DNA of 64,000 nt from an uncultured archaeon (lineage in GTDB: Archaea; Asgardarchaeota; Lokiarchaeia; Sigyniarchaeales; SOKP01). The stretch lies in the NCBI GenBank assembly GCA_964486045.1, contig CAZALK010000012.1, forward strand, positions 111,206 through 175,205. Reading direction: 5' to 3'. The notes under the pieces were generated by a model. That model saw only the letters and a program-made list of their open reading frames with translations. It searched no databases and was not told the origin of the DNA. Shown here in pieces: positions 39,350 to 40,484 of this stretch. Positions within the stretch are counted from its first letter, which is position 1. The number at the start of each line of letters is the position of its first letter. Both the position numbers and the translations under genes were made by a program.

Positions 39350-39762
39350 AATACATAAGAAAAAGCGGAGTAAAATAATAACTATTTAGTTTTAACTATT
39401 TTTCAGAAAAATTAGAGTAGATATAGGATATTTTTCTTAAATGGTAAACTAACAAATAACTCAGTTCATTATCTCAATGCTTTCCCTTCCAACTTCCCTT
39501 AAAAGAATTCGATTGATTATGATTTTCTCGCTTTTCATAACTTCATCATAATGTGTAACAATCTGATTAATGTATATCTCCTCTTTGAAGGGATGAGGCA
39601 TAACTTCTTCAAGTCGAATTATAGAAACACCTAATAAGTTAAAATTAAGTAGGAAAATTAGAAACAATTTATAAAATTTCCTATTTTTCATTCGACAAAA
39701 AAGAACGAAAATTGCATTAAAATTAAAAAGATGTTTATATTTGATCAAATTTTCACTTTTCT

Positions 39763-40272
39763 ATGTCAGATAGTGAAACATCAAATTCTGATGAAAGGTT
39801 ACCCTTAGATACTAATGCACCGATGATAGATACCGTTGATGCATTCGGAAATCCAATAAATCTTACCGAGATTCTCAAAGAAAATAATGGTTTAATAATT
39901 GACTTTCACAGAGCGGCATGGTGATATTACTGAAAAATTCAGCTAGGAAAATTAAACAAAAATATAGACGAAATTAAGAAAAGAAACGTTAAACTCATTA
40001 CAATTATGACCGATAGAACTATGCCAGTAAAAAAACTCGCAGAAAGCAAAAAGTATGATTTTACTATTATAGCGGATGAAAAGGCAGAAATATCAAGACG
40101 GTATAAAGCATTCGGAAAACCTATAGACTTTGACAAGATAAAAATGTTGATAGCTATACCTACAACATATTTAATTGATACCAACGGGAAAATTGTCTGG
40201 CGATATCTCGGTAATAAAACAGAAAGACCTTCAATTGAAGCTATCCTAGAAGCCATCGATACTAAATTATAA
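39763..40272 (+). CDS. AhpC/TSA peroxiredoxin-like selenoprotein (169 aa; U54-Y-Y-U57)
   Basis: Single frame from ATG 39763 with TGA at 39922 and 39931 at the redox CxxC positions (FHRAAW-U-YY-U); downstream IPTTYLIDTNGKI; SECIS-like hairpin follows. Confidence 0.85.
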
Positions 40273-40298
40273 TCTATATCTATAAAAATTGTTCTTGA

Positions 40299-40334
40299 AT
40301 GATTCGAGTATAAAAAAATGAGATACTCGAGGAC
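40299..40334 (+). promoter_or_regulatory. Eukaryote-like SECIS element (3' UTR)
   Basis: ATGA-T-TCGAGTAT-[AAAAAAATGAG]-ATACTCGA-G-GA: AUGA/GA core, perfect 8-bp stem, A-rich loop, 26 nt after the stop. Confidence 0.75.
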
Positions 40335-40484
40335 GACCTCGCAAAGGTTCATGAAAACCTCATTTTTAATGAAGACTTGTTTTTAACCATTATACGAAGT
40401 TCTAAATCATAATAAAAGTAAAACTATCTAATTTTCAAGGAGAATTTGTTACTAATCTTTTAAATTTCGTTGAGAAATTCTAAT

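Follow-up and report, generated by a model that had tools for sequence, protein, structure and literature searches.

A peroxiredoxin-like gene with two in-frame UGA codons and a downstream lokiSECIS element in a Lokiarchaeial genome

The closest described relatives of the gene analysed here are the PrxL proteins of Lokiarchaeota, presented by Mariotti et al. in 2016 as a peroxiredoxin (Prx)-like family without the usual hallmarks of a Prx and with a Cys-x-x-Cys redox box (PMC4989117). According to the text of that paper, PrxL.2 contains one selenocysteine (Sec) and PrxL.1 two, with no other Cys, and a diselenide was proposed with SelL as its only precedent. SelL itself, a metazoan and marine-bacterial protein, combines a Prx-like thioredoxin fold and a UxxU motif with one SECIS for two UGAs two codons apart, and its diselenide was shown by Shchedrina et al. 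2007, as cited in passages of PMC4989117 and PMC2397514. The 2016 text also describes the lokiSECIS, the element associated with these genes, as an AUGA, a 9-bp stem, an 11-nt loop and a GA after the stem, located close to the stop codon; the loop begins with five bases that are A-rich and ends in an A followed by an invariant G (Mariotti et al. 2016, PMC4989117). The Prx-like family is reported from 43.2% of Sec-using Asgard archaea in the text of Huang et al. 2024 (PMC11227280), and UxxC- or UxxU-containing thiol:disulfide oxidoreductases of the Prx-like kind are among the proteins listed in a 2026 review (PMC13188914).

We analysed a 64,000-nt stretch of DNA (the window) from a Lokiarchaeial metagenome-assembled genome of 5.18 Mb in 45 contigs, estimated to be 99% complete with 7.8% contamination. 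A preliminary description of the window, made from its letters, had pointed to an overlooked Prx-like selenoprotein of which ordinary annotation shows only an 88-aa tail. Its reading frame proved accurate: the frame opens at ATG 39763, runs through the redox-box context GCA TGG TGA TAT TAC TGA AAA and closes at TAA 40270-40272, with TGA codons 54 and 57 as the only in-frame stops and no Cys in the translation besides the two redox-box sites taken to be recoded. Translation by table 11 breaks this gene, hereafter prxL, into two pieces, a head of 53 aa (39763-39924) and the tail ORF of 88 aa, and many database homologues are shortened likewise, to 92-111 aa. The tail ORF is an artefact that arises when the TGAs are taken as stops, and its expression alone was considered and rejected. 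The gene and its flanks comprise the following features.

39734..39741, + strand: TATA-like box TTTATATT, ~26 nt upstream of the ATG, read directly from the sequence
39763..40272, + strand: prxL coding sequence, 169 codons plus TAA, for a Prx-like (AhpC/TSA fold) predicted selenoprotein with a W-U-Y-Y-U redox box
39922..39924, + strand: UGA codon 54, predicted to be read as Sec; redox-box position 1, in the loop that leads into helix 55-66
39931..39933, + strand: UGA codon 57, predicted to be read as Sec; redox-box position 2, in the first helical turn, aligned with the peroxidatic Cys of BCP
40006..40272, + strand: 88-aa tail ORF (table 11), as reported by an ordinary gene caller
40159..40161, + strand: CCT codon for Pro133, the thioredoxin-type cis-Pro, aligned with the catalytic Arg of peroxiredoxins (ResA and BCP alignments)
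40363..40367 and 40380-40384, + strand: T5 runs, read from the sequence

The position of the TATA-like box would imply a leaderless or short-leader prxL mRNA, and the T5 runs 3' of the gene are a possible archaeal transcription stop. Antisense to prxL, a 137-aa ATG ORF (39939-40352, - strand) is almost certainly spurious because it overlaps both the conserved coding frame and the SECIS. The neighbouring genes encode a PAP2 phosphatase, an EamA transporter, unknown proteins, a guanylate-kinase-like protein and a DtxR-like repressor; no conserved redox partner or other functional hint was found in this neighbourhood, and the order PAP2, PrxL, 152-aa unknown protein, guanylate-kinase-like protein is kept within the genus only.

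The read-through product matches the Pfam family AhpC-TSA over residues 18-146 (86.6 bits, E 1.6e-24), and Redoxin also matches, so that the full length of the protein is covered by both. An AlphaFold2 model, computed from an alignment of 23 read-through homologues, reached a pLDDT of 89 and a pTM of 0.85. Its closest structural match is Bcp4 of S. solfataricus (3hjp, TM 0.82), and the top matches are all peroxiredoxins or BCPs at a TM of ~0.8. Within the model, U54 sits in the loop before helix 55-66 and U57 in the first turn of that helix, which is the classical location of a CxxC motif. The same correspondence emerged from sequence alignments: phmmer paired the W-C-K-P-C of ResA (4nmu) with W-U-Y-Y-U, placing U54 and U57 on both CxxC cysteines. 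When 1.8 billion cluster representatives were searched exhaustively with phmmer, 1978 hits were obtained, the best 150 of which were inspected; CxxC occupies the U54/U57 columns in 124 of the 132 among them that cover the active site, typically in the context YRGxWCPxC, bearing out the earlier proposal that both TGAs fall on the thioredoxin-fold CxxC. Four of these same 132 carry W at one or both Sec sites. Two full-length database homologues have W at both (P0002, 86% identity; P0003, 57%), and W at these positions probably reflects a TGA read as Trp by the gene caller.

The active site is thioredoxin-like, not Prx-like, with UxxU at the N terminus of helix 1 and a cis-Pro opposite. This cis-Pro, at position 133, is Pro in 115 of the 124 CxxC homologues and invariant in the alignment of PrxL orthologues, as are R50, W53, W146 and R155-P156. 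With the peroxiredoxin Q/BCP group (S. solfataricus Bcp4, 3hjp; A. pernix BCP, 2cx3) the protein shares its overall fold and the position of its second Sec, since the peroxidatic Cys of 2cx3 aligns with U57 and the Ser of its S-x-x-C with U54. The PxxxT/SxxC motif and the catalytic Arg of that group are, however, not kept: relative to 2cx3, Pro is replaced by R50, Ser by U54, Cys by U57 and the Arg of AKR by P133. With the Pro, Thr and Arg of peroxiredoxins all replaced, the protein is peroxiredoxin-like, as the preliminary description called it, and not a canonical peroxiredoxin. The CxxC oxidoreductases of the ResA/TlpA/StoA type, in turn, resemble the protein in their W-C-x-x-C (against W-U-x-x-U), in a conserved cis-Pro (IPT) and in size, with motif and cis-Pro both aligning to ResA; yet the protein scores far below the corresponding NCBIfam cut-offs (ResA, 48.9 vs 170; TlpA, 19.2 vs 230) and is structurally nearer to BCP/Prx. 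Thiol peroxidase is among its best NCBIfam matches, and no signal peptide or membrane anchor is evident in its sequence. The comparison with SelL was apt as an analogy, one that the text of PMC4989117 also draws, but it does not extend to family membership: the NCBIfam model SelL_rel_redox (NF040769) gives 40.4 bits against a cut-off of 120, over residues 22-115 only, and host domain and SECIS type differ as well.

Downstream of the stop codon lies an element that has every lokiSECIS feature listed in the text of PMC4989117, with the following parts.

40299..40333, + strand: lokiSECIS, starting 26 nt past the stop codon, 377 nt from the first UGA and 368 nt from the second
40299-40302, + strand: AUGA
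40303-40311, + strand: 5' stem
40312-40322, + strand: 11-nt A-rich loop ending in AG, AAAAAAAUGAG
40323-40331, + strand: 3' stem
40332-40333, + strand: GA

Read in order, its letters are ATGA, TTCGAGTAT (5' stem), AAAAAAATGAG (loop), ATACTCGAG (3' stem) and GA, and all 9 of the 9 stem pairs are perfect. Across an alignment of 25 PrxL elements, 90.7% of stem cells are paired and compensatory changes occur in 8 of the 9 pairs; shifting the 3' partner by 1-3 columns as a control gave 22-51% pairing. A covariance model built from this alignment and run over the whole genome returned 8 hits in 5.18 Mb, the prxL element scoring 70.9 bits. The six hits that could be assigned follow TGA-containing ORFs of selenoprotein type (three PrxL, one SelD and two VhuD/MvhD-like), and a pattern scan located one further lokiSECIS after a third VhuD-like ORF on contig C17. 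The single-sequence fold of the SECIS region was not significantly more stable than shuffled sequences (z -0.4 and -1.25), so that the support for the structure is comparative only. Scanned in full against Rfam at the gathering thresholds, the window returned no match; Rfam contains no lokiSECIS family.

Two other loci in the genome also produced hits to the model. One, at 44 bits (contig C3, 142679-142990; locus L055), is preceded by no more than an 82-aa ORF containing a G-N-U-S-C motif and a hydrophobic segment, which could be a small unrecognised selenoprotein or the remnant of a VhuD-type 3' end. The other is weaker (28 bits; contig C11, 51213-51283; locus L058), has an extended apical region resembling type II, and follows an ORF of >330 aa with an in-frame TGA in a C-D-U context.

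The Sec machinery that the preliminary description had singled out for checking is present in the genome, on contigs other than that of prxL. It includes a tRNA-Sec (63.5 bits, anticodon TCA) adjoined by SepSecS (494 bits), an archaeal SelB with an aSelB_III domain 4 kb from these two, a full-length PSTK-like kinase that matches the KTI12/PSTK-type Pfam family (140.7 bits, below the NCBIfam cut-off of 290.5), and two SelD genes that themselves have in-frame TGAs. The genes for aSelB, tRNA-Sec and SepSecS lie within ~8 kb, forming a small Sec-machinery cluster (contig C15, 132367-140357). The SelD genes are adjacent (contig C1, 756646-759968) and contain one and two in-frame TGAs, with a lokiSECIS-model hit right after the second gene; a duplicated selD is unusual outside Loki- and Thorarchaeia, according to the text of Huang et al. 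2024 (PMC11227280). Genome-wide, 316 of 1839 long ORFs end in TGA and an equal number in TAG, and the SepSecS, PSTK and SelB genes have no in-frame TGA. The codon has thus not been reassigned across the genome.

Set beside the published description of Lokiarchaeota PrxL.1, the locus agrees throughout. Both have an AhpC/TSA fold of ~170 aa in which Sec is predicted in place of both redox-box cysteines and no other Cys occurs, both have one lokiSECIS just after the stop, and both come from a Lokiarchaeial host with the full Sec machinery. The family features are likewise in place here: a thioredoxin-type U-x-x-U instead of T/S-x-x-C, predicted Sec at both positions, and a host with tRNA-Sec, PSTK, SepSecS, aSelB and SelD. 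At the level of the text of PMC4989117, nothing of substance separates the two.

We then asked how the gene is distributed across its class. A six-frame search of 161 genomes found homologues in 105, and virtually all matches listed as better than ~E 1e-18 have 1-2 in-frame TGAs at the redox-box sites. Eight orthologues from other genomes keep both TGAs at the same two codons, with the protein conserved before, between and after them, in agreement with the earlier argument that independent nonsense mutations at exactly these sites are unlikely. Redox-box position 1 is Sec in 33 of the 33 distinct related genes retrieved, whereas at position 2 Sec occurs in 18 of them and Cys in the other 15, a ratio that is biased because a UxxU query was used to select the loci by similarity. 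The genome itself contains two UxxC paralogues (contig C2, 205659-206150; contig C14, 124322-124798), to which the prxL copy is ~40% identical; that copy belongs to a distinct clade with the motif GAWU[H/Y/I]YUK.

In a maximum-likelihood tree of 31 PrxL proteins, unrooted and drawn from a sample chosen by similarity, the UxxU state requires at least 3 changes and forms three separate clades, one of them nested in UxxC genes. More than one change was needed in 200 of 200 bootstrap trees (5%-95% range, 3-3). This distribution suggests that the UxxU and UxxC forms have interconverted at least three times in Lokiarchaeial PrxL. With a SECIS in place, a Cys codon (TGY) and TGA are one base apart. 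Members of the UxxU clade nested in UxxC genes often stand in tandem with a UxxC copy; such prxL pairs, each gene with its own lokiSECIS, occur in related genomes of the same genus (L032, L038, L039 and L041).

Collectively, these data lead us to read 39763-40272 on the + strand, with a probability of roughly 0.9, as an intact PrxL.1-type gene in which both UGAs are decoded as Sec through one lokiSECIS in the 3' UTR, giving a thioredoxin-like UxxU protein that is most likely a low-potential oxidoreductase. Judging from the sequence, archaeal SelB in its GTP form would deliver Sec-tRNA(Sec) to UGA codons 54 and 57, and the single eukaryote-like lokiSECIS at 40299-40333 would serve both. The two selenols, with two residues between them at the N terminus of a helix, would then cycle with an intramolecular diselenide, a hypothesis of the preliminary description that coincides with what Mariotti et al. 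2016 proposed for Loki PrxL.1 in the text of PMC4989117. The analysis itself establishes the gene structure, the homology and fold, the TGA/Cys correspondence, the covariation of the SECIS and the presence of the Sec machinery; from these we infer the insertion of Sec at both codons and the diselenide, as well as the substrate and the reductant of the enzyme. A thioredoxin-like active site that lacks the Prx Pro, Thr and Arg makes PrxL most likely a very low-potential oxidoreductase alternating between diselenol and diselenide, and not a classical Prx.

The same gene and the same recoding would also be compatible with a selenol peroxidase, in which U57 attacks peroxides and U54 resolves the product in a cycle like that of GPx or Prx. 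Sec works well as the peroxidatic residue of GPx, the top structural matches of the model are without exception peroxiredoxins or BCPs, U57 falls exactly on the peroxidatic Cys of BCP, and a thiol peroxidase family ranks among the best NCBIfam matches. The Prx signature is nonetheless missing (Arg50 for Pro, Sec54 for Thr/Ser, cis-Pro133 for the catalytic Arg), the motif and cis-Pro fit oxidoreductases of the ResA/TlpA type, and the family is described in the text of Mariotti et al. (PMC4989117) as being without typical Prx features; we consider peroxidase activity unlikely and rank it below the oxidoreductase. A different product would result if the first UGA alone were recoded efficiently and the second often terminated translation, leaving mainly a 56-aa peptide or a protein level tuned by selenium supply. 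The UxxC paralogues on C2 and C14 of the same genome would be in keeping with such a scheme, but the C-terminal two thirds of the protein are strongly conserved, including the cis-Pro and a WRY motif, UxxU forms persist in three separate clades, and the one SECIS of SelL serves both of its closely spaced UGAs (as cited in the text of PMC4989117), all of which makes frequent termination at codon 57 quite improbable.

Readings without Sec fare worse. Decoding of the UGAs as Trp, Cys or another standard residue, through local or genome-wide reassignment, might be suspected from the two database homologues called with W at both sites, which probably reflect the gene caller's choice of code. TGA is nevertheless a normal stop in this genome, long conserved genes are free of it in frame, the genome encodes a dedicated tRNA-Sec along with the full Sec pathway, and the TGAs are confined to the catalytic Cys columns; we rejected reassignment on these grounds as very improbable. 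Equally rejected, and hardly credible at all, is a pseudogene in which two nonsense mutations struck a former CxxC redoxin so that fragments at most are made. The standard code does yield just a 53-aa head and an 88-aa tail, but the comparative data contradict decay: orthologues in other genera have both TGAs at the same codons with conserved protein on both sides, a covarying SECIS follows the stop, and the first site is TGA in 33 of 33 related genes. The reading we retain is the intact, doubly recoded PrxL.1-type gene.

Around the lokiSECIS of this gene, two further helices can be drawn.

40336..40348, + strand: mini-hairpin ACCU-CGCAA-AGGU, immediately following the GA of the SECIS core, with the conserved form ACCY-N5-RGGU
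40292-40298 with 40349-40355, + strand: candidate lower helix UUCUUGA/UCAUGAA, 6 of 7 pairs, drawn by eye and weak for this copy alone

The mini-hairpin is paired in 94-98% of cells across 25-30 elements and is present also behind the VhuD-type SECIS elements of the same genome. Its outer three pairs (ACC/GGU) exhibit no two-sided change and its inner pair changes on both sides in only 2 of 30 rows, so that its support is conservation, not covariation. The lower helix takes a different register in most relatives (AUCCCA/UGGGAU), where 77.8% of cells are paired and compensatory changes occur in 6 of 6 pairs, and variants of it stand behind other selenoprotein genes of the genome (AACCGA/UCGGUU, ACCCC/GGGGU and AUGUGUU/AACACAU). 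These comparisons suggest that the lower helix, the 9-bp SECIS stem and the mini-hairpin inserted after the core GA may together form a three-way junction, which, if true, could provide the recognition site for the Asgard SECIS-binding factor. The text of the published lokiSECIS descriptions mentions a lower stem and an internal loop, and no inserted hairpin. Together with the repeated Cys/Sec switching, the junction may go beyond what those texts state. As a joint claim, a three-way-junction lokiSECIS combined with at least three Cys/Sec switches in Lokiarchaeial PrxL, tandem UxxC+UxxU pairs included, is one that we advance tentatively, as a possibility with somewhat less than even odds.

The prxL find is correct but already known, being a published feature of a published family. 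Any novelty that the preliminary description attached to a UxxU Prx-like selenoprotein does not hold, with Lokiarchaeota PrxL.1 in the literature since 2016 (PMC4989117), and the gene opens no new question because that year already saw the publication of the family, of its two Sec residues, of the proposed diselenide and of its eukaryote-like SECIS. What changes is the annotation, in which a 169-aa selenoprotein had been listed only as an 88-aa tail, and the count of a rare motif: this is one more well-supported example of a UxxU redox box, for which SelL is the only counterpart to have been characterised. The prxL gene with its compact 3' UTR SECIS also makes a convenient minimal cassette for UGA-to-Sec decoding in Asgard archaea, and the same cassette suits the question of whether one SECIS serves two UGAs three codons apart.
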